Shown piece after piece: positions 1 to 18,705 of a stretch of DNA of 64,000 bases; the stretch's first letter is position 1, and every line of letters starts with the position of its first letter. Origin of the DNA: an uncultured virus (IMG/VR IMGVR_UViG_3300011741_000001) (Duplodnaviria; Heunggongvirae; Uroviricota; Caudoviricetes). The stretch lies in the IMG/VR virus record IMGVR_UViG_3300011741_000001, positions 1-64,000 of that record. One strand, 5' to 3'. The position numbers were made by a program, and so were the translations under genes. Under the pieces are notes generated by a model. That model was not told where the DNA came from. It saw nothing but the letters and a program-made list of their open reading frames with translations, and did no database searches.

Positions 1-1076
1 TAGAGGTTGTAAATCAAATCTCCCATACAGACCGCACACACCCCTTGCTTCGCCATGTGGCGACACGTCATCGCACTGCGGAAGACCAGTGGTTTCCCAA
101 TCAGTCCTTCGTAATCGGCTTTCTCAAAACGACGCCACGGCCCTGTGGTGTCGTTCTCCAGTCGATAACGCATGCCTTCCATGGCCATAAACGAATCTTT
201 CGATACGTCGGTGTTCTGGAAGGTATGGCAGTGATGGTGCGTGGTACCACAGTCGCCGTAATAGAACGTCATCAACACGTTGGCCGCCAGCTGCAGTTTA
301 CGGGAACCGTATTCCGCTTCGGCGATGTTATCCGTGTTATACAGATGCGAACGAGAGGTAGCGCCGGCTTCTTTGATACGGGATGCCAAATCGTGCAGAC
401 CGTTGAAGAAACCTTCCCACACTTGGTTGGTGTACACACGGGAGTCAATCTCAGAGGTCTTACCACGCACATAGGCCTGGAGAATCTGGTTGATTTTGAC
501 CGTACCGTCTTTCACCGACATGACCAATGGATTGTACTTCAGCCGTTCATCGTTAGCGATAATGCTTTCGATAATCTGATAGGCTTTCTCCACCATGTCC
601 ACGCCTTCGTCATCGTAACCGGTCGGATACTGCACCGTCCAGTCGAGTACGATCTTGTAGTCAGGGTGTGCGTAGATCTCCATCATCGTGTCCACATCGA
701 TTGTCGTGCAATACGGCAACAGATGTTTCACGGTCAGGTTAAACGCATCCGCATAGATGTGCTGAGACAGGATGTAACGCGTATCCGGTAACTCCACACC
801 TGCTTCGCGTGCCAACACCGATGCTTTGGACATGAACCCGATGTGTTTATCATCGGTGGCCACTTCCCCGTGCTGGTAACACATTGATGAGGGGGTCGAC
901 ACGCTTGGATACAGTCGAGACAGTGCCCAATACGGCCAGCTCAACTTAATCTGGCGTGAAGCCAATTGCAACTCCACACCGTCATCAAACGTCACCCGAT
1001 ACATCCCGCGCATCTTCCACACTTTCTCTGCAGACAATGCACGCACATCACGAATATGAACCGGATGCCCCTTCAT
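1..1076 (-). CDS. Non-virion RNA polymerase beta'-like subunit (phiKZ gp74-like), runs off the left edge
   Basis: Absent from the ORF track because it has no stop in the window. ATG at 1076 overlaps the upstream TGA (TGATG). Manual translation MKGHPVHIRDV... contains beta'-type GDCGT and RSAMTC...GVCAVCMG Zn motifs; follows the beta-C subunit gene. Confidence 0.85.
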   Translation of the reverse strand, partial: MKGHPVHIRDVRALSAEKVWKMRGMYRVTFDDGVELQLASRQIKLSWPYWALSRLYPSVSTPSSMCYQHGEVATDDKHIGFMSKASVLAREAGVELPDTRYILSQHIYADAFNLTVKHLLPYCTTIDVDTMMEIYAHPDYKIVLDWTVQYPTGYDDEGVDMVEKAYQIIESIIANDERLKYNPLVMSVKDGTVKINQILQAYVRGKTSEIDSRVYTNQVWEGFFNGLHDLASRIKEAGATSRSHLYNTDNIAEAEYGSRKLQLAANVLMTFYYGDCGTTHHHCHTFQNTDVSKDSFMAMEGMRYRLENDTTGPWRRFEKADYEGLIGKPLVFRSAMTCRHMAKQGVCAVCMGDLIYNL

Positions 1077-3289
1077 CAATTCTCCTCCCGTTGCGGCCGC
1101 ACTAACACAAAGCCCTCACAACGATGCACGTTGCTGATCACTTTATCCACCTGAGACGTCCCAAGCGGAAACTTCTTACGATCGATGATATACCCCGGAT
1201 TTGTCGGTGTGTCCGACTCGTACAGTTTGGTCACCATCTCACGATGCACATCCGGCGAGTTCGCGCGGTTGTGGATTTCATCAATCAACTGTTTACCGTA
1301 ACCGGAACCCAGACGACGTTCCGACTCACCCAGCCATTTCTTCGCGCTGTAGTTAATCGGGTAGTTACCGCGACCGCTGCTGCTCGAATCAATACAACCG
1401 AGATAGTTCAGATACATCGATGAGATACTGGAGAACTCACGGCCGGTTTTATCCAGACGCAGGGTTTCCACATAGCCGGCGTAGAACTCGTTCTTCGTCC
1501 ACTCCTGCACACCGTCGTAGTTGGTGATCAGTAGCTTGGTTTTCTTCGGTTTGAATTCACCCAAACCTTCTACGATCCCAACCGGTGTGTTGTCCAGTTC
1601 ATGCGGGAGCCACAGACGGATGGTGAAGTCGTAGATCTCTTTGAAGAGTTCCAGACGTTTCGCATCGGTGTCGTGTTCTTCCATCAGGAAGTTCGCCCAG
1701 TCCGCATTGTAACGGGCACAGTAGTCCATCAGGATGTCCCATGCTTCCGTTAGCTGGTCAGCTTCCAGCATCGGTTTAAGGCGCATCTTCAGCTGCTCAG
1801 AGGCCGCAGACCAATAGATGTGGAACAGACCCGAATACGTTGAACGACGCACCACGGCGTTCTGAGAGCGCATCACGTGGATACGTTGACCCAGTTCGTT
1901 CAGTGGCATTTCGTGGTCAGGTTTCACCGCACCGACGATCCCCTTGGTACCCGAACGGTCAGTGATTTTCGAGGAGACCGTCACCGGGATCGGATAACGC
2001 ACCACGATACGCACGGTGTACGTATTGATGGGGTCGCGCAACGCACGTTCCACGGGATCTTTCAAACGAGACAGAATACGGTTATCCGCCGCTTCCTGCT
2101 TATACTCGTTACGACGCACGGCTTCCTGAATCTCTTTGCGCATCTCCTGCTGGAATTCCTGATACACTTCGTAAGTTTCCGAAGCGAACGCTTTGTCCAA
2201 CAGTTCTGCTGCACGAGGAGACCAGACCACATCTTCCTGCATCAGGAAGTAGAAACGAATCAGCTCACGATAAAACTGCTTCAACGCCAACGCATACTGG
2301 TCGAGAATCTTTTTGTTCTCTTCCGTCGCACGGATGTTGTTGTGGCCTTTATCGATGGAATACTCGTCACGCCACACCTGCAAGTCAATCACCCGTGAAC
2401 CGTTATAGTCCGTTGGGCACTCGTGGTGTTTCGGGTCAGCATCCACGTATTCGCAGTGGTCGTAGAACGGACTGGCGTGCATGGTCTCACCCATGTTCGC
2501 TGTGATAGCCGCGTACAACGGATCGAAACGACGGGCCGCACACACCAGACCATCATCGCGTACCGCTTCACCGATGTTTGGGAAATACTGCGGATAACGC
2601 ACACCGTCCACGGTCTTACCGTAGATGTCCAGCAAGAACTCGTCGTCACGCAACGACATCTCGATGGTACGATAACCCCAACCGTGCATCTTCTCTGCAG
2701 CGGTCTCGGAAATGGTGTAAGAATCCTCAATGATGTCCGGATGGGAAATGGACACCGTCATCAGATTCACCCCGTCCACAAACTCCCCGTCCTTCAGACA
2801 GTTCATCGTGGTCAGGATATCATCCCGCTCGAGGTCATCGGTTTCACCCCGCACGATACGACGCAGCATTTCCGTGGGACGTTTCTCGGAAGTGAACACG
2901 TTATCGTGTGCGGTATAGTTACTGGTTTCGATGAGATCAATCATCGGTTTCAACTGGGTACTGGCATCCCGTGCGGTACGACGTGTAAAGATAGCGTACT
3001 GCAAGACATTGGGATCGCCTACCCGCGCATGACGTGCAAACACCGCACGACGTTGCTTGCCTTTGTCATTATACTGCAACACCACACCCGTGTCTTCGAC
3101 GATGTCGTTGAACACCACGTTGGCGTATTCCGTGTCTGCACCCGTAAAGTGAATCGTTGGTTCTGGGGAATCAATCGGCACCGCCGATTTCATATGTCCG
3201 CCTACCATTGCCGCACGCGAACCCGATATTTCATTAATACCCGTTTCACGGTCAGCAGAGACGCCGGTAAATTCAGTAAAAGATTTCAT
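1076..3289 (-). CDS. Non-virion RNA polymerase beta C-terminal subunit (phiKZ gp71/73-like), intron-less
   Basis: Beta motifs SRAAMVGGHMKSAVP, IEDSYTISE, SKITDRSGTKGIV, KWLGESE. Start moved from track TTG 3319 to ATG 3289, which has a GGAG RBS. Confidence 0.9.
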   Translation of the reverse strand: MKSFTEFTGVSADRETGINEISGSRAAMVGGHMKSAVPIDSPEPTIHFTGADTEYANVVFNDIVEDTGVVLQYNDKGKQRRAVFARHARVGDPNVLQYAIFTRRTARDASTQLKPMIDLIETSNYTAHDNVFTSEKRPTEMLRRIVRGETDDLERDDILTTMNCLKDGEFVDGVNLMTVSISHPDIIEDSYTISETAAEKMHGWGYRTIEMSLRDDEFLLDIYGKTVDGVRYPQYFPNIGEAVRDDGLVCAARRFDPLYAAITANMGETMHASPFYDHCEYVDADPKHHECPTDYNGSRVIDLQVWRDEYSIDKGHNNIRATEENKKILDQYALALKQFYRELIRFYFLMQEDVVWSPRAAELLDKAFASETYEVYQEFQQEMRKEIQEAVRRNEYKQEAADNRILSRLKDPVERALRDPINTYTVRIVVRYPIPVTVSSKITDRSGTKGIVGAVKPDHEMPLNELGQRIHVMRSQNAVVRRSTYSGLFHIYWSAASEQLKMRLKPMLEADQLTEAWDILMDYCARYNADWANFLMEEHDTDAKRLELFKEIYDFTIRLWLPHELDNTPVGIVEGLGEFKPKKTKLLITNYDGVQEWTKNEFYAGYVETLRLDKTGREFSSISSMYLNYLGCIDSSSSGRGNYPINYSAKKWLGESERRLGSGYGKQLIDEIHNRANSPDVHREMVTKLYESDTPTNPGYIIDRKKFPLGTSQVDKVISNVHRCEGFVLVRPQREEN

Positions 3290-3360
3290 TATTAAAAGGC
3301 TCCTTTCGTGTTCCTGCAACTAGATAAAATCTATCTCTACTTATTTTAAAGGAGAGTTCC

Positions 3361-3690
3361 GTGCTCGACCAATTCATCACGTTGCCAGAGATTATCCCGC
3401 CACCTGAAACTAACAAGCAGCGTGTATTGCGGGACCACATCGACTTTATGCGCAATCACCCAGATACTAAAGACTTCAACGTCGACCCGGCTATCAGCTG
3501 GCCCGAAGTTGGTTACTTCTACATGTATTGTCGTACGGCAGGCTTCGACGACATACAGGTTTACCCCATCATGCTGTTGAACAATATGGTAGACACGTTC
3601 GACTTCAACCCGAGAACGGTTACCACGTTGCGTGTCCCTACTGCACCGGTTGTGCAGGGGATTATCGCCACACTCAACAACAATGTGTAG
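3361..3690 (+). CDS. Small protein, possibly T4 gp53/P2 gpX-like (LysM-type) baseplate protein
   Basis: AAGGAG RBS before GTG and its own terminator. IMLLNNM..DF....LRVP resembles gp53/gpX patterns (by eye only). Confidence 0.6.
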   Translation: MLDQFITLPEIIPPPETNKQRVLRDHIDFMRNHPDTKDFNVDPAISWPEVGYFYMYCRTAGFDDIQVYPIMLLNNMVDTFDFNPRTVTTLRVPTAPVVQGIIATLNNNV

Positions 3691-3733
3691 AAAAAAAGAA
3701 GGGGCCGGTAAGGCCCCTCTTTATTTTTTTTTT
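3691..3733. terminator. Bidirectional intrinsic terminator
   Basis: A-run, AGGGGCC-ggtaa-GGCCCCT hairpin, T-run, between convergent genes. Confidence 0.85.
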
Positions 3734-3740
3734 GTCCCGG

Positions 3741-5051
3741 TTAGAAACTGAACCCACCGTTCCCACCGCCGAGCAATGATCCGCCCAACAGAGAACCGCC
3801 GGAGTTTCCACCCAAGAGACTGCCACCGCTGTTACCGGTTGAGAATAAACTGCCCGAGGTACCACCACCCAGAATGCTTGGCGTATTAGAGCTACCACCC
3901 ATTGCCGCAGCAAGAGAGATATTGTTGATTGACTCAGTGGCCACGTTTGCCCGACCCGACTGCTCCAGATTACGCTGCTGGAGCGGCGTCAGGGTAGCAG
4001 GGTCTGGTGCGCCGAACAACGATGTGTTGTTGTTCTTACCGACACCGGCTTTACGGAAGAAGTCTGCCAGATCCTGCTCACTTTCATCCATCGTTGATGC
4101 CGACGGCGCAGCTTTAGGCTCGTTCGCCGGAGACGGTTGCAGACGGAAGTCTTGTTGAGAAGTATCTTTCTCACCTTCATTACGCGGGCCGACGTTAAAC
4201 GGCAGCGTCTGCACTTTGTTGTTGTACTGGGCGAGATGGTCGAGTTGACCAATCCACGCATCGTTCAACGGACGCAGTGCAGAGTGATCCTTTAACCCTT
4301 TCACAATCAGGTTATAGTTCACCACGTAGTTAGCCCATGCGCGCGACAGTGCACCGAAGTACGGACGGTCGTCGTTAGAGCCAGTGAGCGACGGAATCCA
4401 ATTGAACACAGTCTCAAGCAGGCGATGCAGAATCACCTTATCTTGTTTCCGGCCCAGTTTCGCTCCGAAGTACATTGCTGTGCCGTCTTCGCCCTCTTCT
4501 TCAAAGCAGTGGTGATAGTTCGCGGCACGGATGTATTTCACCCCTTCCACTTTCATCTCCGTTGCAATGAAGATCTGGATGCGCTTCTTGGCGTCAACAG
4601 AACTATTCACATAGTTCTCAATAGCGGTGAAGCTCGTTTGTAATCCTTTATCGAACTTCGGATCTTTGATCCCCTCGCAGATATCCGCGAGCCACTTTTT
4701 GTATCCCGCGAGGCGAATCGGCTTCCCTTCTGCCGCCACGTCGAGAATCACACGAATCAGCTCCATCGAGAGTGTCCACGCTCGGGAGATGATTGCTTTC
4801 TTCAGGAAACGGATAGTGCCCGATTCCCCGTACAACACCGACTCACACAGCGGATGGAAGGCATGGCATTCCAGCCCGTCTCCATCTTCCATGTCGGCTT
4901 TGATCATTGCCGAGGTCGGGAGTACCATACGACGCTTCACGCCGTTGTATTTAAAGTACGCTGGGACGGTACCGTCCATCAACAACTTATCATCTTCTAC
5001 AGAGAAACCCAGCGAAGCCAGTTCATCAGTATAGAACTCGAAAATATTCAT
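3741..5051 (-). CDS. Conserved nucleus-block protein (phiKZ gp70 position) with Gly/Ser/Leu repeat tail
   Basis: 436-aa ORF between the PicA candidate and nvRNAP beta-C; low-complexity C-terminus with GSLLGG repeats ending GFSF. Confidence 0.75.
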   Translation of the reverse strand: MNIFEFYTDELASLGFSVEDDKLLMDGTVPAYFKYNGVKRRMVLPTSAMIKADMEDGDGLECHAFHPLCESVLYGESGTIRFLKKAIISRAWTLSMELIRVILDVAAEGKPIRLAGYKKWLADICEGIKDPKFDKGLQTSFTAIENYVNSSVDAKKRIQIFIATEMKVEGVKYIRAANYHHCFEEEGEDGTAMYFGAKLGRKQDKVILHRLLETVFNWIPSLTGSNDDRPYFGALSRAWANYVVNYNLIVKGLKDHSALRPLNDAWIGQLDHLAQYNNKVQTLPFNVGPRNEGEKDTSQQDFRLQPSPANEPKAAPSASTMDESEQDLADFFRKAGVGKNNNTSLFGAPDPATLTPLQQRNLEQSGRANVATESINNISLAAAMGGSSNTPSILGGGTSGSLFSTGNSGGSLLGGNSGGSLLGGSLLGGGNGGFSF

Positions 5052-5065
5052 GTGGTAGATAATCC

Positions 5066-6745
5066 TTAGAAGTTAAAGCTGTCAGACCCACCACCCAGCG
5101 ATGTTAACCCGCTATCCGCGAGCAAACTACCGCCCGACGGCCCGGTTGGAATATTACTGAGGATACGACCCTTACCAATGGTACGTTCGTGGTCGTTGTA
5201 ACCCTCATCAATGGCTTTGGTCAATGTGTTGACATCTGATGCCAACTGACCGACGTACGACAGATCCGTGGTGTTACCCATGTGCAGACGGGAACTCAGG
5301 AACGACGCGAAGGTACGAGACTCTGGGAAGATTTCCCCATCGATTTGAATCTCGATACGGTTCACCACACCGAGTTTCGCGATACACCACACGCTGCAAC
5401 GAATCGCATTGTGTTTGGTCACGGTCAGCATCAGCGCATTCAGATCCCCAATCAACTGACTGGCGAGTTCCGGTGGCATCTGTGCACCCGCTACCCCACC
5501 AACAGACATTGGGTCAATCTGCAGCTGTGCTGGCGTCATGAAGTCTGCACTGCGGTTATCGAAGGTAAAGGACATCTCACCCACGAGGCTTTTCACCATG
5601 ATCGGTGCCAGCTGCATCGCCATGTCGTACTGCACCAGACTGCCCTGAGTGGCGTTACCTTTCGGCGTTAACCACGCATCGGTTTTATCCGCTTCCAGTG
5701 CAAAGCGAACACGATCGGCTTCACGCAGCGACGTACGAATGTCTTCGTCGAGCTTATACGTGTTGTCGATGGCATGACGCAAGTCCATCAGACGGAACTG
5801 TGCTTTGTTACTGTTACGCCAGTTGCCTTCGTTTTGTCCGGTGTTGCGCTGCAGCGCCGAACGCATCGCTTGCACGAAGTCATAGTTGTTGAACTGACGC
5901 ATCACGCCGAGCTGGGTTAACTCACGCTGAATCCCATACGCGCCACTGCCTTCGAAGAACGAATCAACCTGCGTCAGCGTGTCGTCGTTACCGAGGGTTT
6001 TCAAGTACGAGTTAGAGATAGCCGTCACGAAGTTATCCGGGCGGGTGAGCTTGTTCGACATCAACTGCGCAGTGGTCTGCGTGTTCGGTGCAAACAGTGT
6101 ATCGCCGGTTGGGATAAACTTCTCATTACCGGAGAGATTCATCTTGTTAACCATGTCTGCGGATTTCGCCACAGAGATTAAGTCGATGGTTGACTCCGGC
6201 ATGTACCCTTCGGCATTCAGCGCTTGTGACAACACGTAGTTGTCCATCATGCGGAACCCGACGGCTTTACGTTCGCCCAATGAACCGTACGCATACGTGA
6301 CACGCAGGCCATAGATGTCATTGATGTTCAACACCATGTCATCCGGTAACAGACCCGTAAGAGAACGGGTGGCTTGGCTGGTATACCCGGTTACGATGTA
6401 ACGCGTTTCCTGACTGCGGGTTTCATTGATCGGATTCGCCACGATGGTTGCGATGAAGTTGTACACACCGGTGTCTGCCGAGTTGTACGAGAACTCCACC
6501 ACTTTCTTATCGCTTTCACCGACGTTAATCAGTGGACGTTCCACACCCGCTGCCGTTTCATCAAAGCCCACGATACCGCTTAAGGCTGACTGATACTCCA
6601 CACTGCCGATAGCGCTTTTACCCCCACGGGCAACCACGTCAATCAGACTGTCTAAAGAAGACGTCGTACCGGCAAAACCAACACGACGACGAATTTGTTC
6701 CGGAATGTCGTATACCGGGTAGCACACCAAGCTTTCTAAGATCAT
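5066..6745 (-). CDS. picA: Candidate nuclear-shell protein import factor PicA/Imp1 (phiKZ gp69-like)
   Basis: 559 aa, AGGAG RBS, immediately downstream of the gp68-like gene as in phiKZ-like phages. Function inferred from synteny and size. Confidence 0.6.
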   Translation of the reverse strand: MILESLVCYPVYDIPEQIRRRVGFAGTTSSLDSLIDVVARGGKSAIGSVEYQSALSGIVGFDETAAGVERPLINVGESDKKVVEFSYNSADTGVYNFIATIVANPINETRSQETRYIVTGYTSQATRSLTGLLPDDMVLNINDIYGLRVTYAYGSLGERKAVGFRMMDNYVLSQALNAEGYMPESTIDLISVAKSADMVNKMNLSGNEKFIPTGDTLFAPNTQTTAQLMSNKLTRPDNFVTAISNSYLKTLGNDDTLTQVDSFFEGSGAYGIQRELTQLGVMRQFNNYDFVQAMRSALQRNTGQNEGNWRNSNKAQFRLMDLRHAIDNTYKLDEDIRTSLREADRVRFALEADKTDAWLTPKGNATQGSLVQYDMAMQLAPIMVKSLVGEMSFTFDNRSADFMTPAQLQIDPMSVGGVAGAQMPPELASQLIGDLNALMLTVTKHNAIRCSVWCIAKLGVVNRIEIQIDGEIFPESRTFASFLSSRLHMGNTTDLSYVGQLASDVNTLTKAIDEGYNDHERTIGKGRILSNIPTGPSGGSLLADSGLTSLGGGSDSFNF

Positions 6746-6759
6746 TTAGTAGATTCTCC

Positions 6760-8394
6760 TTACGAGTTAAACCAGTCAACTTCATTCAGTTTGTTACGTG
6801 CCTGAATGGTTAACATTTCTGCCAGTTGCGTTTGGATGGCACCACCCAGACGCATCTTTTCAATGGACGCTTCACACTGTAACAAGGCCGCGGCTTCTTC
6901 TGTCGCATTCAGGTTAAAGTAGTACGGCGCGATATGATTGCTCAACAACAAGTTCAATGATTCACGAGGCGTAGAATCAGTGCTGACACTGCCTCTCGAT
7001 GACTTGTAAGCATGAGGATAATATCTATCCATTTTAATTTTGATATCATTATCAATCGGTTGAATCGGATGACCGGTCATGTTCCCCGGAATCATCGTAC
7101 AGCTCAACAGACGGGCCACGTCATGCATTCCGTAATGCAGATACACTGCCTGTGCGATCGCCATGCCGTGTTTGAATGCATCCCGATGGATATCCTTAAA
7201 CGAGCGACAATCCACAAAGCGGTGAATCACCGACGCCACCAACCATTCGTGCAGTTCGTACGTTGGGCCGTTATGGTGCGTGAGTATGGAATCAATCAAG
7301 GTCTTCACCGTGCTCGGTGGGACGTCGATGCCATAACGTTTGATGAACCGACGATAGTCCATCATGGAGATCCCCCCACGAATCGGTTCTTTCGGGGGTG
7401 CGTCTTCACGTCCCTCGATTAAATCGATTGCAGTGACCTTTCCCTTTTCCCCGTTGTACACCACATTCACCGGGTGTTGTTTCAGCAACACGTTCTGACC
7501 CGAGATACGGGAAGCAAACCCGCCTTCCACTTCAGTACGAATCGCGTAGAAGATTTGCGAGATGGTGTTGTTCTCGTTCATGTCTGCCGTGCCGTAGTCC
7601 GCACCCACCGGATGCAAGCCCAACACGAACACCGCCGTGAACGCCATCTGATACTCTTCCAGCATGTCCGAACCGTAACCACAGACCGAGGCCAGTACCG
7701 ACAGACTCGTCCCGTTAGGGCCTTTGTTGCTTTCTTTCTGGAACTTCTCAACCAGACAATCCAGAAACACTTTCAGTTTCGGAATGGCCGGACTGCGAGA
7801 GAGATCCGTGCCGTGCAAGACGTTATAGCTGCGAATCATGTTGTACACAACTTTACGCTTGGTCTCTTGCGCCAGACCTTTGCCGTTGATGTACGCACCC
7901 AGCATGTTGAACAACGGCACATACGCTTTGATGGTCAACGAGTACATCAGCATCTCGTAATACTCATGGCGAATGTACGTCATCTCACGCGGATAATTCG
8001 GTGGCAGCGAATCAAAGTTCTCCTGAAGTTTCTCAGGAATCCACACTTTATCCATCGGATACAGCGCTTTGAAGTTGGAGATTTTGTGCAGGCTGTCCAG
8101 TACGCGCACGATACCCGGCAGGTATTCTTCTACCGTTTCCGGTTCTGCGCCACTCAGAGCAGCGATGGTGTCGTACGTTTCGTACAACTGATCCTGTTCG
8201 GCCGACGTGAGGGTCGTCCAATAACGTTCCAGCTCCACGAACAATAAGTCGTCACGGGTCATCACTTCACCGTTGGCGTTACGCGCACCAACGATGTTCT
8301 GCTTCTTGCGATTAATCGCCGGCAGACCTTCGAAGCGAACAGATTTGTCACGATGGGTAATCGTGATGACCTCTTTCACTTTAGCAATTTTCAT
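6760..8394 (-). CDS. Non-virion RNAP promoter-specificity (sigma-like) subunit, phiKZ gp68-like
   Basis: 544 aa, helical composition, GGAG RBS, syntenic position in the gp65-gp74 block. Confidence 0.65.
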   Translation of the reverse strand: MKIAKVKEVITITHRDKSVRFEGLPAINRKKQNIVGARNANGEVMTRDDLLFVELERYWTTLTSAEQDQLYETYDTIAALSGAEPETVEEYLPGIVRVLDSLHKISNFKALYPMDKVWIPEKLQENFDSLPPNYPREMTYIRHEYYEMLMYSLTIKAYVPLFNMLGAYINGKGLAQETKRKVVYNMIRSYNVLHGTDLSRSPAIPKLKVFLDCLVEKFQKESNKGPNGTSLSVLASVCGYGSDMLEEYQMAFTAVFVLGLHPVGADYGTADMNENNTISQIFYAIRTEVEGGFASRISGQNVLLKQHPVNVVYNGEKGKVTAIDLIEGREDAPPKEPIRGGISMMDYRRFIKRYGIDVPPSTVKTLIDSILTHHNGPTYELHEWLVASVIHRFVDCRSFKDIHRDAFKHGMAIAQAVYLHYGMHDVARLLSCTMIPGNMTGHPIQPIDNDIKIKMDRYYPHAYKSSRGSVSTDSTPRESLNLLLSNHIAPYYFNLNATEEAAALLQCEASIEKMRLGGAIQTQLAEMLTIQARNKLNEVDWFNS

Positions 8395-8525: not shown

Positions 8526-9194
8526 TTACAGTACGTCGTCGAACGTTTGGGTAGCTTGAGCCTGCTGCTGACCGCCGCCGCTATAACCACCGCGTTGCTG
8601 GTTATTGTTGCCGTAGCTGTTGTTACCGCCACGTTGCTGATAACCACCAGACTGCCCACCGAAGCCTTTCTTCTCGAAGTCACGTGGTTTGTACACTTCG
8701 CGCGTCCACTCGATGAACAGCTCGAAGTCACCCACGAACGAACGGGCACAACGCTCACGCAGTTCCAGATCGCTCAGTGGCTGGCCGTTACGCATGATGG
8801 TGAAGAACTTCGCCGGATACCAGAAGAACTTCTTGGACTTCTTCTGACCGTTAACATCGCCGGACAGGGCAATGAACGGCACCAGATCGTCGCCACGACC
8901 CACATGCAGCGTTGTCGGTGGTTTGTTACCACGGCTGTTTTCAAAGCTGAGCGTCTGCTTCTCAGACTTCTTCAACACGTCTTCCAGTGCTTCTTTGATC
9001 TGACGACAGGTGCCCAGCGGGGCATCAAAGTACAGACCTTCGCCTTTGCCAAAAGAGTAGGCAAATTTCAGACCTTCCACATCCCCGTTGAAATCGTTGG
9101 GTTCGATTTTCAACTTGGTTTGTTTGTTCGCATTATCCGGTTCGGTTAACGGAAACAGCGTACGGTCTTTAAAGATTTCTAAGTTCATGTTCAT
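8526..9194 (-). CDS. Candidate ChmC / phiKZ gp67-like single-stranded nucleic-acid-binding protein
   Basis: Basic/aromatic core plus G/Q/N-rich disordered tail ending TFDDVL; directly upstream of the gp68-like gene; start moved to ATG 9194 (AAGGA RBS). Confidence 0.6.
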   Translation of the reverse strand: MNMNLEIFKDRTLFPLTEPDNANKQTKLKIEPNDFNGDVEGLKFAYSFGKGEGLYFDAPLGTCRQIKEALEDVLKKSEKQTLSFENSRGNKPPTTLHVGRGDDLVPFIALSGDVNGQKKSKKFFWYPAKFFTIMRNGQPLSDLELRERCARSFVGDFELFIEWTREVYKPRDFEKKGFGGQSGGYQQRGGNNSYGNNNQQRGGYSGGGQQQAQATQTFDDVL

Positions 9195-9259
9195 TCTATT
9201 TTGTCCTTCGTAAATGCCAGCGGGCTTCACCTCAAATGAAGCCGCGGTAATGTAAAAAA

Positions 9260-10087
9260 TCAGTGACCCAGCTTATCCAGAAACGCCATCACGTGCGGTT
9301 CGTTCATGAGCTTTAGATTCAGTTTGATGCGATCCATGGTGGTGTCCGCACGCCAGTGGTATTTCTCCGCCGCTTTCAGTACCACCCGCCGGACTTTGAG
9401 GTCTTGGGGTGAGAACATAATCCCGTCACCGAACAGCGTTAAGAACGCTTTGTTAAACGGTACATTCAGCGGTTTGTTGTAGAGCTTGCTGTTCCACTCC
9501 AGATGGGTCTTCAGTTTCCCGGTGTGGGATTCTATCAACGCCAGTTTCGGGAAGTGTTTACGGCTCAGCAAGTCCAGTGGGAGGTGAGTGAGAATGACCG
9601 TATCCTGTTCGCCTTTTATTTCGCAGTCAAACAGTTGCGTGTCCCACAGTTTTTCGTTGCCTACCATGCGGTAAACATCCATTTCCAGACTGTTGTAGAA
9701 AATCTGGCTCTCGGTATTGGCGTTCTTAAACGCCGCTTCCGGGAACATTTTGTTCACCGTTTTGTACTGACACAGGTACGGGACACATACCATCGAAGGG
9801 GCCACTGCCTGAGCAGTGGCTATGATATTTTGGATATCTTCTTCGATGCATGTTCGTATAGTATCAGCCCGCAGGCTATCGCGATTCTCTTCGAACGCGT
9901 AAAACGCGTTACGGAACAACGTCCGGATGTTCAGGTAGAATGCCTGAAACTGATGGATGGGTGGCTGTTCTTTGCCACGGCTCCAGTCGGCGTATTCGCC
10001 GGTGTGGGTCAAGCCTTCCAAAGCCAGCGAACTGGCAATGGAGATAGGGTAATTCCCAAAAACGCGATCAACGCTAATGGGATTCAT
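9260..10087 (-). CDS. Conserved protein (phiKZ gp66 position) with 5'-3' exonuclease/FEN-like motifs, possibly degenerate
   Basis: YLNIRTLFRNAFYAF, VILTHLPLDLL and LFGDG resemble FEN/T4 RNase H motifs; ATGA-type overlap with the upstream nuclease gene. Confidence 0.6.
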   Translation of the reverse strand: MNPISVDRVFGNYPISIASSLALEGLTHTGEYADWSRGKEQPPIHQFQAFYLNIRTLFRNAFYAFEENRDSLRADTIRTCIEEDIQNIIATAQAVAPSMVCVPYLCQYKTVNKMFPEAAFKNANTESQIFYNSLEMDVYRMVGNEKLWDTQLFDCEIKGEQDTVILTHLPLDLLSRKHFPKLALIESHTGKLKTHLEWNSKLYNKPLNVPFNKAFLTLFGDGIMFSPQDLKVRRVVLKAAEKYHWRADTTMDRIKLNLKLMNEPHVMAFLDKLGH

Positions 10088-11244
10088 AACAGGCTCCTGA
10101 CAATATCAGAGGCAACATTGGCATCGTGATTAATCGACGCCATTCTTTCCATGGTAATACTTTCGATATTCTCGAGAGTAATACTGGGTTGGGCAGGCAT
10201 GTTGATATCAAACGCCTGCTGGAGCACCGCTTCCTCTTCAGGAGACGGCAGCTTCTTCCCTTCAATCAAGAAGGGGTACTCTTTCTTCCAGCGGATAACG
10301 TGCTCCGCCAGAGGAGAACCGGCGTGGTACTCTACCGCAAACCGGCCAATGTGCGATGAGGGGTGTTCATCGATAAAACGCAAGGCGTCCAGACAGGCTT
10401 GATATTGCTTGTCGTAGTCGTCCATCAACCCCACCTTACGGTGTGGGCACGCGTTGGGATTTTCATAGAACCAATTGCGAACAACGGTGTCGTTAAAGTC
10501 GACTATCGTCATGCCTTTGGTTTCTTCCTCGCCGTGGGAGAGCCTCTCGACTGATCCCGTTACGGTGATAGCATCCTTCGTCTTGCGACGATGGTCATGG
10601 CCGATATAGATGCCATGCTTCACACGTGACAGCCAGAACTCCTCGTTAAACGAGCGCGGTGACTCGACTGGGAGCTGAAAAGTGAAACAGCCGTGCATGA
10701 AAAAGAAATCGACTTTTTCCAGGCAGCGTGTGGCCATTAACTGCGCCATTTCCTGTTCCGTTGCTAAAGCATTGATCGTATCTGCATTGGCGGCTTTGTA
10801 TTCGTCCTGCACCCAGCCTACGGTCGCTTGAATCGCCTCATCGTAGAAGATACCGATTTTGTCCAAGAACAAACAATCTGCACCGATGGCTAGATTGGCG
10901 TGCTCGAGCATCTTCGACTGACCGTGGTCATGAGACGGCGTACCTTCGGTGACGCGCAGAGCGGTATTGGTGCTTTTACACCAAACCAGCAACCACGTGA
11001 TAAAGCCAATGGCTTCATGCGTGTCCGCCTGACGCAGATAACGGGAGTCTTCAAATAAGTCTCCTGCTATATAAATTGCATCAAGCGTATCGCCACATCC
11101 TTCAATCATTGCTTTAAGCACATTGACCATGTGCCATGTCGGAACACGTTTGTGTAACAGGTGCACATCACTGAGCGCCAGTATCCTCCGCATCCCGACC
11201 GCTTTGGCTATTGGGCTGTAACTATAGTTCGTCCCCGAGACCAT
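10084..11244 (-). CDS. Calcineurin-like metallophosphoesterase, SbcD/Mre11-like nuclease
   Basis: Motifs LSDVHL, AGDLFE, GTPSHD, FMHG, IGHDH, GSVERL. Confidence 0.9.
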   Translation of the reverse strand: MVSGTNYSYSPIAKAVGMRRILALSDVHLLHKRVPTWHMVNVLKAMIEGCGDTLDAIYIAGDLFEDSRYLRQADTHEAIGFITWLLVWCKSTNTALRVTEGTPSHDHGQSKMLEHANLAIGADCLFLDKIGIFYDEAIQATVGWVQDEYKAANADTINALATEQEMAQLMATRCLEKVDFFFMHGCFTFQLPVESPRSFNEEFWLSRVKHGIYIGHDHRRKTKDAITVTGSVERLSHGEEETKGMTIVDFNDTVVRNWFYENPNACPHRKVGLMDDYDKQYQACLDALRFIDEHPSSHIGRFAVEYHAGSPLAEHVIRWKKEYPFLIEGKKLPSPEEEAVLQQAFDINMPAQPSITLENIESITMERMASINHDANVASDIVRSLL

Positions 11245-12293: not shown

Positions 12294-12878
12294 TCAGCAC
12301 GACGCGTTGAGTTGCGAACACGGGTCAGCATCTTCCCAATCGAAGTCACGCATGGTACGCCAGTTCATCTGGATAATTTGCTTATCAAAGATGTCCGGAC
12401 GATTCACACGGGCTTCGTCGGTGACCCAGTTCCAAATCTTCTCGTCATACTCGGTTGACATGCCGCTGGTAATATCGCGATAGTTGGCATCAGTGTGCAT
12501 GTACGCACTACCACGATATTTATCCACTTTCGAATACCCGTTCTCATAGCCCGCCGCCATATTCTGATTATACAGATTACGGTACTCCGGCATCGCCACG
12601 AGATAACCCTGCATCGTTTCCGACGCATGTTGGAACTGACCGATATCTTCAATGATTCGAATGATATTGTCGTTCGCACCATGCAGCAGTTTACGCGCTG
12701 CAGCGTCTGTTTTACGGAACATATCCAGCGACACGATTTGCTCACGATGCTGTTGCACCCGGCCAAGCAGATCAGGAGCTAATGATGTCAAGTCGAACGT
12801 TTGTTTCACCGTTTCGAAAAAGCCACCACCTTCTGACTGTCGATGCCACGCAGAGAGCGATTGTGTCCACATACCCAT
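12294..12878 (-). CDS. Conserved protein downstream of nvRNAP beta'N (phiKZ gp59 position)
   Basis: 194 aa, AGGAG RBS, syntenic position. Confidence 0.7.
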   Translation of the reverse strand: MGMWTQSLSAWHRQSEGGGFFETVKQTFDLTSLAPDLLGRVQQHREQIVSLDMFRKTDAAARKLLHGANDNIIRIIEDIGQFQHASETMQGYLVAMPEYRNLYNQNMAAGYENGYSKVDKYRGSAYMHTDANYRDITSGMSTEYDEKIWNWVTDEARVNRPDIFDKQIIQMNWRTMRDFDWEDADPCSQLNASC

Positions 12879-12900: not shown

Positions 12901-14490
12901 CTACAGGTTTTCTAACGCAATACCTACTTCATCATCCTCATCTGCTTCAATGAGGAACTGGTTCTGCATAGAGATGAGTTCGTTATGTAAAATCATGCCA
13001 TGTTCGACCTGATCCACATTCGTTGATGACATGAAGCCCTGATCCGGACGATACGCCTCGGCCAGTTCCATCTCCAGTTTGTCCACCGGACGGTACACCA
13101 TGAACTGGTCGCCATCGAAATCGCCGTTGGCCATCTTGATGACGCGATCGGAGATACGGATAGAACACTGGTTGACATCGGTGACAATCTCATCAATGTA
13201 CAACAACTGCATCGACAACTGTACCAGCGTCGGGTTACGTAACACCACGACCGGAATACCGATGCCGCCCGGGGTTTCGCGAATCAGTTCTTTTAAGATC
13301 TCATCCACTTCCGGCATGTACTGCATTGCGGCTTTCGCCACGATTCGTTCACACTCACGAGAGGAGTAGCCCCGACGTAAGAGTTTGTTTTCGATGTCCA
13401 CGGACATAATGCCAATGGTCCAGCGCCACGGTGCTTTGAGCTTCCACGCATCATGCGGTTCGGAGATAGGTGAGATTGTCGCACGACCCGACCACGGTAT
13501 GTGCGTTGAACTGACCTTACCACGATACATGCCCGGTTTCTGCTCGAGTACCTCACGACGGAAGTCCATGTGGAAATACGTGAGCTGACGGTTGGCCTTA
13601 ATCGCACGAGAGATTAAGTGACGCGGTTCCACTACACGGCCACGGGTATACAGCAGGCTGATGTTCTTCACGGCATCAATCGCACCGGTATAGACCGGGT
13701 CAATCATGATCCCACGACGCCCTTCTTCCGACACAATCAACTTCGATGAGATAACCGGCAAGTGCTGTGTCAGTACCGCATGACCCTGGGTTTCAAAGAA
13801 CTCCACCCATTGTGCCCGCAGCAGTTCACAGGTACCCGCATTCTGACGCTTCAGTGGGAACAACTGGTTCCAGTTATCCGGCTGGGTCAGGATCTTAAAG
13901 ATGCTGCGATGACGGTCCACGAAATTACCGATGCCGCGCTCGTAACCGTGCTCTTCCAGTATACGTTTCACTACCTGCATTCTTGCAGAGTCGTTATCGT
14001 CCGGACGGTAGTACGGGTCAAGCATCCACATCATCAAATCGGAACCACGATCAACCGTGACTTTGTTACGGTCGAACTTCTTCATTTTACCGCCGAAGAA
14101 CGCGTTGAACATTGCCCAGAAACGTGGGTTAACAAAATACCCCATCTCTTCCGGTGCGCGAATCCACACTTCTGATTCAATACGGTGTTCAGTCACCGAA
14201 TATCCGCAGGTTGGGCAGACGACACCGAGATTATAACGATGGGCAATCGGACGTTCGCAGGTGATACTACAGATAGGTGCGCTGTTGAGCTTTTCATCGA
14301 CGATGCGGTTCTGTACCAACTGGTCGATTTCTTCTGCAACCTGCACCGGGTCACCGGTTCGTGCGATATCGTTGATGATCGTCGGGGGCTTAATGTTCTT
14401 CGCCGCTGCTTCGATAAGAAGATCGCGCAGATAATTATCCTGACTCTCCAGACGGCCGGAGATTCCGTAATAAGTCGGCTGTTTATGCAC
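12901..14490 (-). CDS. Non-virion RNA polymerase beta' N-terminal catalytic subunit (phiKZ gp55/56.1-like), intron-less
   Basis: Zn ribbon C..C...CPTC, WSGRATI, LRNPTL, catalytic NGDFDGD; GAGGT RBS before GTG. Confidence 0.93.
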   Translation of the reverse strand: MHKQPTYYGISGRLESQDNYLRDLLIEAAAKNIKPPTIINDIARTGDPVQVAEEIDQLVQNRIVDEKLNSAPICSITCERPIAHRYNLGVVCPTCGYSVTEHRIESEVWIRAPEEMGYFVNPRFWAMFNAFFGGKMKKFDRNKVTVDRGSDLMMWMLDPYYRPDDNDSARMQVVKRILEEHGYERGIGNFVDRHRSIFKILTQPDNWNQLFPLKRQNAGTCELLRAQWVEFFETQGHAVLTQHLPVISSKLIVSEEGRRGIMIDPVYTGAIDAVKNISLLYTRGRVVEPRHLISRAIKANRQLTYFHMDFRREVLEQKPGMYRGKVSSTHIPWSGRATISPISEPHDAWKLKAPWRWTIGIMSVDIENKLLRRGYSSRECERIVAKAAMQYMPEVDEILKELIRETPGGIGIPVVVLRNPTLVQLSMQLLYIDEIVTDVNQCSIRISDRVIKMANGDFDGDQFMVYRPVDKLEMELAEAYRPDQGFMSSTNVDQVEHGMILHNELISMQNQFLIEADEDDEVGIALENL

Positions 14491-14573: not shown

Positions 14574-16379
14574 TTAGAAATTGAAGCTGCTGGTACCGCC
14601 CAGGTTCAGGCCGAAGTCAGACAGAGCGCTGCCGTTGTTCGAACCAGACAGGGTCAGGTTGGTTTTGCCTTCGTCGAAGAACAGTGCGTTGGACGCAGAG
14701 TCGTACTCGTTCACGCCGTTCAGCTGGAAGGTACCGGCGTGTTTACGCACAGATTCCAGCAGGACTTTCGCGAACACTGGGTTGGTCGCCATATCCAGCG
14801 ATTCGCCCGTTGCACGGCCGTCACGTGAAGCGTACATGCTCACAGACAGACGCAGCAGGTACAGACGCTGCTGATGCTCATCCAGCTCACGGTTGTAGAA
14901 GGACTGCGCGTGCAGGTAGCGCACAACGTCAGCCTGCTTATCACCGAGGTGAGTCGCAACAGACACCAGATCCATATCCGCGTAAGAACGCTTCTGACCA
15001 TCCTGCACGTACTGACCAGCGATGGTCGGTACTGCTGCTGAGATGATGTGCTGTGCAACGATACGCTCTGGTTTACCCAGTGCGGCTGCCAGCCAGTTGC
15101 GGAACTTACCACCGTTCGCATCGGCAGGGAACATACCGTCCAGAATAGACAGCAGTTGCGCCAGTGCGTTGTCGCTACCTACAGCTACTTCAGCCATCAG
15201 CGTAGACAGGCCACCCAGACCGTTGGCCGCACGGTGAGAAATCACCAGCGCTGCCTGAGACGGGCAGAACATTTCCAGTGCAGACTTCAGCAGCTCTTTG
15301 TTGCCATCGAGTTTGCTTACGTCAACTTTGGTATCGGTACCCCACACCAGATACTGCGCCAGTGCTGAGAACTTACGATCGGATTTGTTCAGTTTGCCGA
15401 GGGCAATGTCACGCCAGCCGCCACGTGCCGCGATATCAGCGAAGCCTGCCAGAGTCAGGAGCTGACGCTCGTACGGTACAGAAGAACCTTCCTGCTGTGA
15501 ATCCATCAGAGACACAACCACTTCGCCCTGCATCTGGCGACGGTTGATAACGCCGTTCTCTTCTTTCTTCACACCGGTGAAGCGCAGGTTAACGAAGCCC
15601 GCCGCTTTGGTACGCGGTACCACTTTACCCTGACCGTCAGACAGCAGAGTCGCTTCGTTCTGATCGGTGTTCTGAGACTGGTGAGTCATCAGGATACCGA
15701 AGTCAGCACGCTGTGCGTGGCCGTTCGCATCAATCACAGAACCGCTGGAGATTTCAGCAACGTTCAGGTTGAAGCGGTCAGCTTTGCCCAGAGTCAGTTT
15801 ACCGAGGTAGCCCGGTGCACGACCGAAGATACCCATGAGCATCTGACCCATGATGCCGATAGCCCACTGCGGGTCCATGGTTTTACCCAGATCCGGAACA
15901 GTGTTCAGCGCCATGTGGTGCAGGTTGTCCATGCCGTAGTTTTTCTGCAGGTCAGCAGAAATCGCGTCACGCACTTTCTCATTCACCAGAGACGGAATGG
16001 TGTAGTAGCTTTCGACGTTGTTGTTGGTGGTGATACGGAAGCTGTCGCCTTTCTCGAACAGCACCAGACCGTACAGCCATGCGCCGTTATACTGGCCAGC
16101 AACGAATGCCGCAGAACCGAAGTCGGAGTTGCTGATAGATTCAACAACGCCGTATTTGAACTGGTTGAGGTTCGGGTTTTCTTTCTTCAGCTCATCGAGT
16201 GCTGCGCAGAAAGCGCCAGCCATGCTCGAGATTGAAACCAGACCGAAGGACTTATCCCATGAGGTGGCTGTACCCAAACCATTGAATGCGCCGGTGTTGT
16301 TCACAGTCGGCTGAACTTCTGGCTGTGCAGTAGCGGCAACACCAGCGTTTACTTTTGAAACTTCAACTTCTTTAACCAT
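14574..16379 (-). CDS. chmA: Chimallin, major phage nuclear shell protein (phiKZ gp54-like)
   Basis: 601 aa immediately upstream of nvRNAP beta'N; strongly biased codons, disordered N- and C-termini, early-type promoter motifs upstream, terminator downstream. Confidence 0.82.
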   Translation of the reverse strand: MVKEVEVSKVNAGVAATAQPEVQPTVNNTGAFNGLGTATSWDKSFGLVSISSMAGAFCAALDELKKENPNLNQFKYGVVESISNSDFGSAAFVAGQYNGAWLYGLVLFEKGDSFRITTNNNVESYYTIPSLVNEKVRDAISADLQKNYGMDNLHHMALNTVPDLGKTMDPQWAIGIMGQMLMGIFGRAPGYLGKLTLGKADRFNLNVAEISSGSVIDANGHAQRADFGILMTHQSQNTDQNEATLLSDGQGKVVPRTKAAGFVNLRFTGVKKEENGVINRRQMQGEVVVSLMDSQQEGSSVPYERQLLTLAGFADIAARGGWRDIALGKLNKSDRKFSALAQYLVWGTDTKVDVSKLDGNKELLKSALEMFCPSQAALVISHRAANGLGGLSTLMAEVAVGSDNALAQLLSILDGMFPADANGGKFRNWLAAALGKPERIVAQHIISAAVPTIAGQYVQDGQKRSYADMDLVSVATHLGDKQADVVRYLHAQSFYNRELDEHQQRLYLLRLSVSMYASRDGRATGESLDMATNPVFAKVLLESVRKHAGTFQLNGVNEYDSASNALFFDEGKTNLTLSGSNNGSALSDFGLNLGGTSSFNF

Positions 16380-18562: not shown

Positions 18563-18705
18563 TGGCGATGCTCAGGCAACGGACGGAGACCCCGCACCAC
18601 CACGCTGTTGTTGCTGGCCACTGATCCCATTTCCATTTCCACCACACGCTGCTGCAAATCAACCAGCACACTTTCCACCCGACGGCGGAACGCCTGCTCA
18701 ATCAT
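18559..18705 (-). CDS. Small hypothetical protein (48 aa, MIEQAF...)
   Basis: ATG 18705 overlaps the polymerase stop region; its stop overlaps the next ATG (ATGA). Confidence 0.5.
   Translation of the reverse strand: MIEQAFRRRVESVLVDLQQRVVEMEMGSVASNNSVVVRGLRPLPEHRQ

Follow-up and report, generated by a model that had tools for sequence, protein, structure and literature searches.

A chimallin-like, low-complexity C-terminal tail on a gp70/gp64-family protein of a nucleus-forming jumbo phage: a possible docking and cohesion device at the phage nuclear shell

The first 64 kb (64,000 nucleotides, hereafter the window) of the 239,534-bp uncultured virus record IMGVR_UViG_3300011741_000001, whose completeness is estimated at 99%, carry a minus-strand gene (3741-5051) that codes for a 436-amino acid protein with a long low-complexity carboxyl terminus. 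By its sequence this protein, the target of the present analysis, is a gp70/gp64-family protein of an SPN3US-like jumbo phage that forms a nucleus, and its gene is a new member of this known but uncharacterised family. With a probability of about 0.45, its tail is read here as a multivalent docking and cohesion tail at the phage nuclear shell that partly copies the C-terminal docking segment of the shell protein chimallin (ChmA). The composition of the tail varies among lineages together with that of the tail of the import factor Imp1/PicA but not with that of the neighbouring protein ChmC/Imp6, and in the target phage ChmA, Imp1 and the target end in nearly identical residues.

The target matches phrog_3520 (E = 7.7e-110), as does phiKZ gp70 (E = 4.1e-122), and BLASTP aligns the two proteins across 283 amino acids (E = 1e-6). 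An AlphaFold2 model built with 40 homologues has block means of the predicted local distance difference test (pLDDT) of 77-98 up to residue 280 and of 33-66 from residue 281 on. Residues 287-436, mostly below 50, are thus predicted to be disordered, with only short predicted helices at 328-334, 356-365 and 380-383.

The span 3741-4040 comprises the stop codon and target residues 338-436. A preliminary description of the window, made from its letters, had singled out this span as a tail rich in asparagine, serine, glycine and threonine, nearly free of charge at its end and punctuated by hydrophobic motifs, and all of the motifs that it named are present: SLFG at residue 344, SILG(G) at 392, (G)SLFS at 401, SLLG at 411, 420 and 425, and the terminal GFSF. 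Residues 337-436 contain 23% G, 16% S, 13% L, 11% N and 7% T, the last 60 residues 33% G, 22% S and 8% N. Aspartate, glutamate, lysine and arginine are absent after E373, which leaves 63 uncharged final residues with seven L/F motifs, the hydrophobic motifs being spaced every 5-10 residues. The target ranks first among 995 open reading frames (ORFs, at least 60 amino acids) of the 239.5-kb genome for the fraction of G/S/N/T/Q in the last 40 residues (0.75). The pattern S[LI][LF][GSD] occurs six times in its last 100 amino acids and at most once in those of every other of the 264 non-overlapping ORFs. The repetition is thus above chance level.

The three SLLG copies are written with different synonymous codons (AGT CTC TTG, TCT CTG TTG and TCA TTG CTC), exactly as had been pointed out beforehand. 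Tandem Repeats Finder (minimum score 30) found no DNA repeats in 3700-4200, and the DNA of the target tail has no stretch longer than 12 nt in common with that of the Imp1 and ChmA tails. The repetition therefore exists at the protein level only. Recent slippage or gene conversion as origin of the repeats and of the shared endings is ruled out by the codons and the DNA repeat search.

Conservation of the tail was followed in a close set of 40 homologues, 38-100% identical to the target, and in a distant set formed by the best 150 of 1782 domain-profile representatives. The tail is kept in kind in both. In all 40 close homologues the ISL motif is followed by a tail of 51-83 residues, of which 44-75% are G/S/N/T/Q and 0-14 carry a charge; 30 of these tails are dominated by leucine, nine by phenylalanine and one is a tie, and conservation reaches at least 90% at S379 and L380. 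Each of the 150 distant representatives has the domain at about residues 1-290, with 97-261 more behind it (median 157). A rough classification of these distant tails, based on the last 80 residues, gave 46 Q/P-rich, 28 mixed-charge, 21 M/Q/P-rich, 15 F-type and five L-type tails, with 35 others. At least 30% of the last 80 residues are charged in 28 of the 150. At least three phenylalanine-glycine (FG) dipeptides are found in ten tails and at least four in eight, some with regular SLFG, MFG or NPFG repeats (four SLFG copies in representative P0092, MFG repeats in P0077, NPFG repeats in P0084). The Phabio tail has GLFG, SLFG, TLFG and GFG repeats, those of phiKZ and Ea35-70 are of the M/Q/P kind and those of PCH45, Xoo-sp14 and 2050HW are built of R/D/E/Y. 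The family constants are thus a long disordered low-complexity tail and a mostly hydrophobic end, with a tail chemistry that varies by lineage; the FG-like tail is one flavour among several, of which the target phage has a leucine-glycine version. A mid-tail pattern related to ISLAAAMGG is present in 17 of 151 family tails, where shuffles predict 1.5; it is enriched and not universal, and was dropped as a motif common to the whole family.

Of 151 family members, 117 end in I, L, V, F, W, Y or M and 25 in R. Some bacterial proteases recognise non-polar C-termini, so that such an end on a disordered tail might serve as a turnover signal through which host proteases limit the level or lifetime of the protein outside the nucleus. 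This explanation is very improbable: it accounts neither for the long repeat part nor for the co-variation with Imp1, and it leaves unexplained the match to the end of chimallin, a very abundant and stable shell protein with the same ending.

The Imp1/PicA orthologues also have short low-complexity tails, whose flavour matches that of the gp70 orthologue of the same phage. Both proteins carry GGLGG-type repeats in Asesino and pEa_SNUABM_29, NSLLD/SLLD motifs in the Caitlin/ChrisDB group, F-based motifs in Phobos, R/D-rich tails in Xoo-sp14 and in locus L013, and Q/P-rich tails in phiKZ. The final 45 residues of Imp1 were compared with the final 70 of gp70 for shared k-mers, with deranged phage pairings as null. 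Among ten clade representatives, 34 shared 4-mers were observed (deranged mean 15.7, maximum 30) and 20 shared 5-mers (mean 6.2, maximum 18), numbers reached by no derangement. With all 13 phages and k = 4 the count was 37 (mean 20.1, maximum 38), reached by 0.03% of 7324 derangements. The two tails fall into one composition class in 14 of 20 phages, the other six being those whose Imp1 tail is classed as "other", and in none of the 20 do they fall into two different named classes. Across these 20 phages the Pearson correlation between Imp1 and gp70 tails is 0.90 for the charged fraction, 0.77 for G and 0.76 for Q/P/M. The ChmC/Imp6 tail, used as control in 16 phages, does not track the gp70 tail (r = -0.15 for charge, 0.10 for G) and is still G/N/Q-rich even beside a gp70 tail that is 61% charged. 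Since the ChmC/Imp6 tail does not follow, a genome-wide compositional bias or drift is an unlikely cause of the co-variation.

The ChmC/Imp6 tail is G/N/Q-rich, with R-G-G-like spots and an acidic-hydrophobic tip (TFDDVL in the target phage), and its form and tip are constant in the 16 phages. The end of the PCH45 orthologue, DEDIPF, presumably resembles the C-terminal tip of the bacterial single-stranded DNA-binding protein (SSB). In the PCH45-like metagenomic phage of locus L013 (1489-3354, 11450-13033 and 13034-14332) arginine is abundant in the chimallin tail, and R/D in those of both Imp1 and gp70. As these three tails are alike in flavour, the chimallin tail may share in the co-variation outside the SPN3US group.

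Like-with-like co-variation is what would be expected of cohesive domains, and it could be taken further than docking. The target and Imp1/PicA tails would then cohere at discrete lattice sites into a small selective phase that lets licensed cargo or mRNA pass and excludes other macromolecules, convergent with the FG domains of nuclear pores. The target tail is predicted to be disordered and has the uncharged, regularly punctuated end described above, true FG-type repeats exist in Phabio, P0092, P0077 and P0084, and the Nup98 FG domain, described as poor in D, E, R, H, K, C, Y, W, M, I and V, lacks the same residues as the target tail and has GLLG, GMLG and LG listed as FG-like motifs (PMC8245513). 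The tail of the neighbouring ChmC forms condensates with RNA in vitro (10.1101/2023.09.22.559000), and Imp1 puncta are seen at the nuclear periphery (10.1101/2024.03.27.586873). Set against this, the target has a single FG dipeptide and a repeat part of just about 60 residues, FG-rich tails are a small minority of the 150 distant representatives and strongly charged ones are more numerous, and the available parts of the cited literature report no pore-sized opening or phase at the shell. A selective phase is considered unlikely.

The shell protein itself was identified at the gp54 position, between the DNA polymerase and RNA polymerase beta subunit genes. This 601-amino acid protein is chimallin: hhalign aligns it to the phiKZ gp54 group over 394 columns (probability 96.3%, E = 1.6e-9), and the top nine Foldseek matches of its model in the PDB are all chimallins (E from 3.1e-21 to 3.8e-17, template modelling (TM) score 0.59-0.71), the best being 7sqv_A (E = 3.1e-21, TM 0.62/0.70). 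A search of the PDB by sequence gave no match for ChmA, and pairwise BLASTP matched neither ChmA nor Imp1 to its phiKZ counterpart, so that the identities of the two proteins rest on PHROG families, hhalign and fold. The nuclear shell protein family phrog_4795 gave no match to the genome in a search whose own controls were silent too. PF25677, a precomputed label on some ChmA homologues, was neither reproduced nor named.

Residues 561-601 of ChmA, with a pLDDT below 50, come out as disordered when the monomer is modelled. Their position is that of the C-terminal segments CTS1 and CTS2, which in solved chimallins dock on neighbouring protomers and are required for self-assembly (10.1101/2022.02.14.480162). 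The ChmA C-terminal segment is of the same sequence type as the target tail: it is rich in G/S/N and has hydrophobic motifs at intervals. The endings in the target genome are GGTSSFNF for ChmA, GGSDSFNF for Imp1 and GGNGGFSF for the target, and these are the only three of 264 non-overlapping ORFs with an F-x-F end. When the other 263 ORFs are ranked by likeness to the ChmA end (BLOSUM62), Imp1 comes first and the target second, with scores of 35 and 25 over the last eight residues (next 13) and of 24 and 22 over the last 12 (next 12). The codons differ, which excludes gene conversion as the source of the shared endings. In the closest clade (Wellington, pEa_SNUABM_11 and locus L006) ChmA ends in F-T-L and Imp1 in F-[KTS]-L; the Imp1 end shifts from F to L as the ChmA end does, and so follows it. 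The gp70 orthologue of these phages ends in W-G-L-[GN]-I, which recalls an inner ChmA motif. The likeness to the chimallin end, as judged from these residues, is real in the target phage but lineage-specific and not a family rule: mimicry of the ChmA end as a general principle was rejected and is restricted to the target phage and, for Imp1 only, to the Wellington-like clade.

In Goslar (L025: 6217-7497, 7553-9139 and 21004-22899) the chimallin, Imp1 and gp70 orthologues all end in phenylalanine (FNLF, KGNF and VNRF), and the gp70 tail is far less repetitive than that of the target. The SPN3US chimallin homologue is named "gp244" in the chimallin preprint, but SPN3US_0244 in JN641803 has just 240 amino acids, so that this name seems to follow another numbering. 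In SPN3US-like phages chimallin is encoded at the conserved gp54 position, where its gene immediately precedes that of the first non-virion RNA polymerase subunit (SPN3US copy L011:1910-3763); the shell protein at the same position in the Goslar RefSeq record is tagged gp246.

The limited reach of the chimallin likeness would suit a tail that is an inert, flexible spacer, that is an entropic linker free to drift, whose short ISL motif and hydrophobic tip bind a partner other than chimallin or Imp1. The repeat part is not conserved in sequence and its flavour changes wholesale among lineages, as such a linker might, with the short conserved motifs and the hydrophobic end persisting. Free drift fails, however, to explain why the Imp1 tail matches in flavour while the ChmC tail does not, why hydrophobic residues are regularly interspersed in the uncharged flavours and why an F-x-F end is confined to three shell proteins in the target genome. 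An inert spacer is judged improbable, about as much so as a selective phase.

In the favoured reading the tail would be a multivalent, low-affinity docking and cohesion device at the chimallin shell. Numerous weak contacts would arise from the F-x-F end and from the regularly spaced L/F motifs of the otherwise uncharged G/S/N sequence, and their partners would be the chimallin surfaces on which chimallin's own C-terminal segments normally sit, the similar Imp1/PicA tail, or both. Such contacts would retain the folded domain at the shell and promote clustering of the import factor in the same place, the tail chemistry being matched to that of the import factor's tail; in the target phage the tip could replace a chimallin tail on the lattice. 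That the tail binds, with which partner, and that this is relevant for shell localisation or transport, we infer. PhiPA3 gp64 is reported at the phage nuclear shell (PMC10643120, which does not use the word "disordered"). PicA with a C-terminal sfGFP gave no rescue (PMC11087766), consistent with the sister tail requiring a free C-terminus. A complex prediction, run without controls, in which the last 60 target residues were combined with the ChmA core (residues 1-556) scored 0.00, a "no answer" that speaks neither for nor against binding.

Several points weigh against docking and cohesion at the shell. The co-variation amounts to roughly four independent flavour switches among related phages and carries no phylogenetic correction. 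When the ChmA-end comparison is extended to the loci of 11 relatives, Imp1 ranks first in three, second in two and 13th or lower in six, and the gp70 orthologue is first or second in only two; in phiKZ the ends of ChmA, Imp1 and gp70 do not match one another. The phiKZ gp70 protein is counted as a nuclear protein, and gp70-FLAG, unlike gp67 (Imp6), did not co-purify with Imp1 in Escherichia coli (10.1101/2024.03.27.586873). The repeat part is unlikely to have one conserved docking site, because R/D mixed-charge and M/Q/P tails cannot share one hydrophobic groove. Experiments on any gp70/gp64-family tail were not found in the literature searched.

The preliminary description had proposed that the protein is either a convergent analogue of FG nucleoporins or a multivalent tether in the shell. 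The tether is the better half of this interpretation and gains from the co-variation with the Imp1 tail and from the chimallin-like C-terminus. The analogy with FG nucleoporins does not fit the family as a whole, since the target has one FG, at least three are present in only ten of 150 representatives and other lineages carry M/Q/P or charged R/D tails; it is best kept as a working resemblance for some lineages and not as membership.

The closest relatives of the target protein found by tblastn belong to Erwinia and Salmonella jumbo phages of the SPN3US/Wellington/Asesino kind (50-65% identity); a megablast of window positions 3300-7000 against phage records gave no match. The minus-strand genes of this part of the window stand in the same order as phiKZ gp50-gp74 (Table 1). 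The target gene is flanked upstream by the Imp1/PicA orthologue, its immediate neighbour, and downstream by the non-virion RNA polymerase beta genes, and the vicinity of a nuclear import factor, claimed beforehand, is borne out by gene order and by the match of that neighbour to phrog_3141 (E = 2.4e-113, against 2.7e-179 for phiKZ gp69). The phiKZ gp68 protein, whose orthologue lies between ChmC/Imp6 and Imp1, is a non-virion RNA polymerase subunit (10.1101/2024.03.27.586873). The GC-rich hairpin downstream of the target gene is likely a two-way terminator shared with the convergent gene, as judged by pattern match only. Outside the window, at G000:C1:130243-131287, two or three adjacent ORFs (129, 142 and 81 amino acids) consist almost entirely of C-S-G-G-type repeats and are rich in cysteine, glycine and serine.

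Table 1. Position of the target gene, its parts and the neighbouring features in the window.
Feature	Position	Strand	Basis or remark
RNA polymerase beta and beta' genes	1076-3319 and 3-1079	-	
GC-rich hairpin with T-runs on both strands	3699-3719		between convergent genes 3361-3690 (+) and 3741-5051 (-)
Target, orthologue of phiKZ gp70 / PhiPA3 gp64 / SPN3US gp32	3741-5051	-	phrog_3520
C-terminal tip LLGGGNGGFSF, F-x-F end, free carboxylate	3744-3776	-	
Uncharged G/S/N tail with L/F motifs, residues 374-436	3744-3932	-	
Disordered C-terminal region, residues about 286-436	3744-4196	-	AlphaFold2
Conserved short motif ISLAAAMGG, residues 378-386	3894-3920	-	just before the repeat part
N-terminal folded domain, residues 1 to about 285	4197-5051	-	AlphaFold2
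CHAFHPLC (C-H-x2-H-x2-C), residues 62-69	about 4845-4868	-	in the folded domain
Imp1/PicA orthologue, 559 aa	5066-6745	-	phrog_3141
Last 25 or so residues of Imp1, ending GGSDSFNF	about 5069-5143		G/S/L-rich
phiKZ gp68 orthologue	6760-8394	-	phrog_3209, as for phiKZ gp68
ChmC/Imp6 orthologue, 234 aa, G/N/Q-rich tail and acidic tip	8526-9230	-	phrog_3284, as for phiKZ gp67
SbcD-like nuclease	10084-11244	-	
Imp3 orthologue	12294-12878	-	phrog_3254, as for phiKZ gp59
Non-virion RNA polymerase subunit	12901-14490	-	
Chimallin (ChmA), 601 aa	14574-16379	-	hhalign and Foldseek
Disordered C-terminal segment of ChmA, residues about 555-601, ending GGTSSFNF	about 14577-14717	-	
DNA polymerase	18698-20992	-	

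The profile of the N-terminal domain detects 1782 cluster representatives at E ≤ 0.001, of which 1510 at E ≤ 1e-10. Foldseek found no match for this domain in the PDB at E ≤ 0.001 (best E = 0.27), VIA-align gave a best wide Z of 5.8, to a designed helical protein, and the ESM Atlas provided no usable match (TM ≤ 0.27). The 13 matches in BFVD are all uncharacterised jumbo-phage proteins. This absence of a fold match is no proof of a new fold. Pfam (E ≤ 0.01) holds no family for the target, nor for Imp1, gp68, ChmC or ChmA, and a PDB profile search with the target returned a single chance-level match (E = 1). The folded domain includes the motif CHAFHPLC, in which H66, P67 and C69 are invariant in the 40 close homologues and H63 is at least 90% conserved. 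Members of the phiKZ kind are devoid of its cysteines (IAFHPLSE there), and the motif may be a metal site in one branch of the gp70/gp64 family.

The main question about the phage nucleus is how proteins and mRNA get through the closed lattice of chimallin. The import factor Imp1/PicA is known genetically, the physical route is not, and a shell-associated, family-wide protein is found here to have a disordered tail that changes its chemistry in step with the tail of the import factor. The properties of this tail are directly relevant to how the phage nucleus is equipped and how it is traversed, and they offer a testable idea for how such proteins are attached to the nucleus or gate it. In the main texts searched, nothing in print was found on the tail of the gp70/gp64 family, and a 2025 review (PMC12908238) mentions neither gp70 nor nucleoporins, nuclear pores, phenylalanine, disorder or low complexity. 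Relative to that literature, the co-variation of the tail with that of Imp1/PicA and the chimallin-like ending in the target phage are new. In a bolder and doubtful version, the gp70/gp64 and Imp1/PicA tails together would form a small cohesive low-complexity mesh, a convergent viral counterpart of the FG phase of nuclear pores that is anchored in the chimallin lattice by chimallin-copying peptides, with a L-G, F-G, M/Q/P or R/D chemistry that co-evolves and sets what crosses the shell. Such a mesh, if real, would mean that the barrier principle of the nuclear pore had been invented twice, independently.

Compared to the known members of phrog_3520 (PhiPA3 gp64, phiKZ gp70 and SPN3US gp32), the target is alike in family, gene position and organization as a folded domain followed by a low-complexity tail. 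Its tail is an uncharged G/S/N sequence with L/F, whereas that of phiKZ is of the M/Q/P kind, that of PCH45 of the R/D/E/Y kind and that of Phabio of the GLFG type. Only in the target phage do both the gp70-family protein and Imp1 end like ChmA; in the Wellington-like relatives Imp1 alone does so.

The target tail has in common with the GLFG domains of the Nup98 type its predicted disorder, near lack of charge, richness in N/S/T/G and short, evenly spaced hydrophobic motifs, and, going by the localisation of PhiPA3 gp64 (PMC10643120), its attachment to a folded domain at a nuclear boundary. No homology between nucleoporins and the target was found in Pfam or by PDB profile search. FG nucleoporins have multiple FG motifs and the target a single one (SLFG at 344) besides the terminal GFSF; a Nup98 FG domain extends over hundreds of residues, compared to about 60 in the target, where leucine and not phenylalanine is the chief hydrophobic residue. 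Other members of the gp70/gp64 family use charged or M/Q/P tails, unlike FG nucleoporins.

ChmC/Imp6, a neighbour in the same conserved gene block, resembles the target in being shell-associated and in joining a folded domain to a disordered low-complexity tail. It differs in its tail, which is G/N/Q-rich and acid-tipped throughout the lineages and shows no co-variation with the gp70 tail. RNA is bound by the folded domain of ChmC (10.1101/2023.09.22.559000), and a nucleic acid-binding feature was not found in the target.

The tail differs from CTS1 and CTS2 of chimallin in being carried by an unrelated fold, in repeating its hydrophobic motif many times and in that the likeness is absent in most relatives. 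The two share a flexible G/S/N-rich C-terminal extension with hydrophobic motifs and an end peptide of the same kind, and the tip of the target, as in a CTS-type peptide, is placed at the extreme C-terminus behind a flexible linker.

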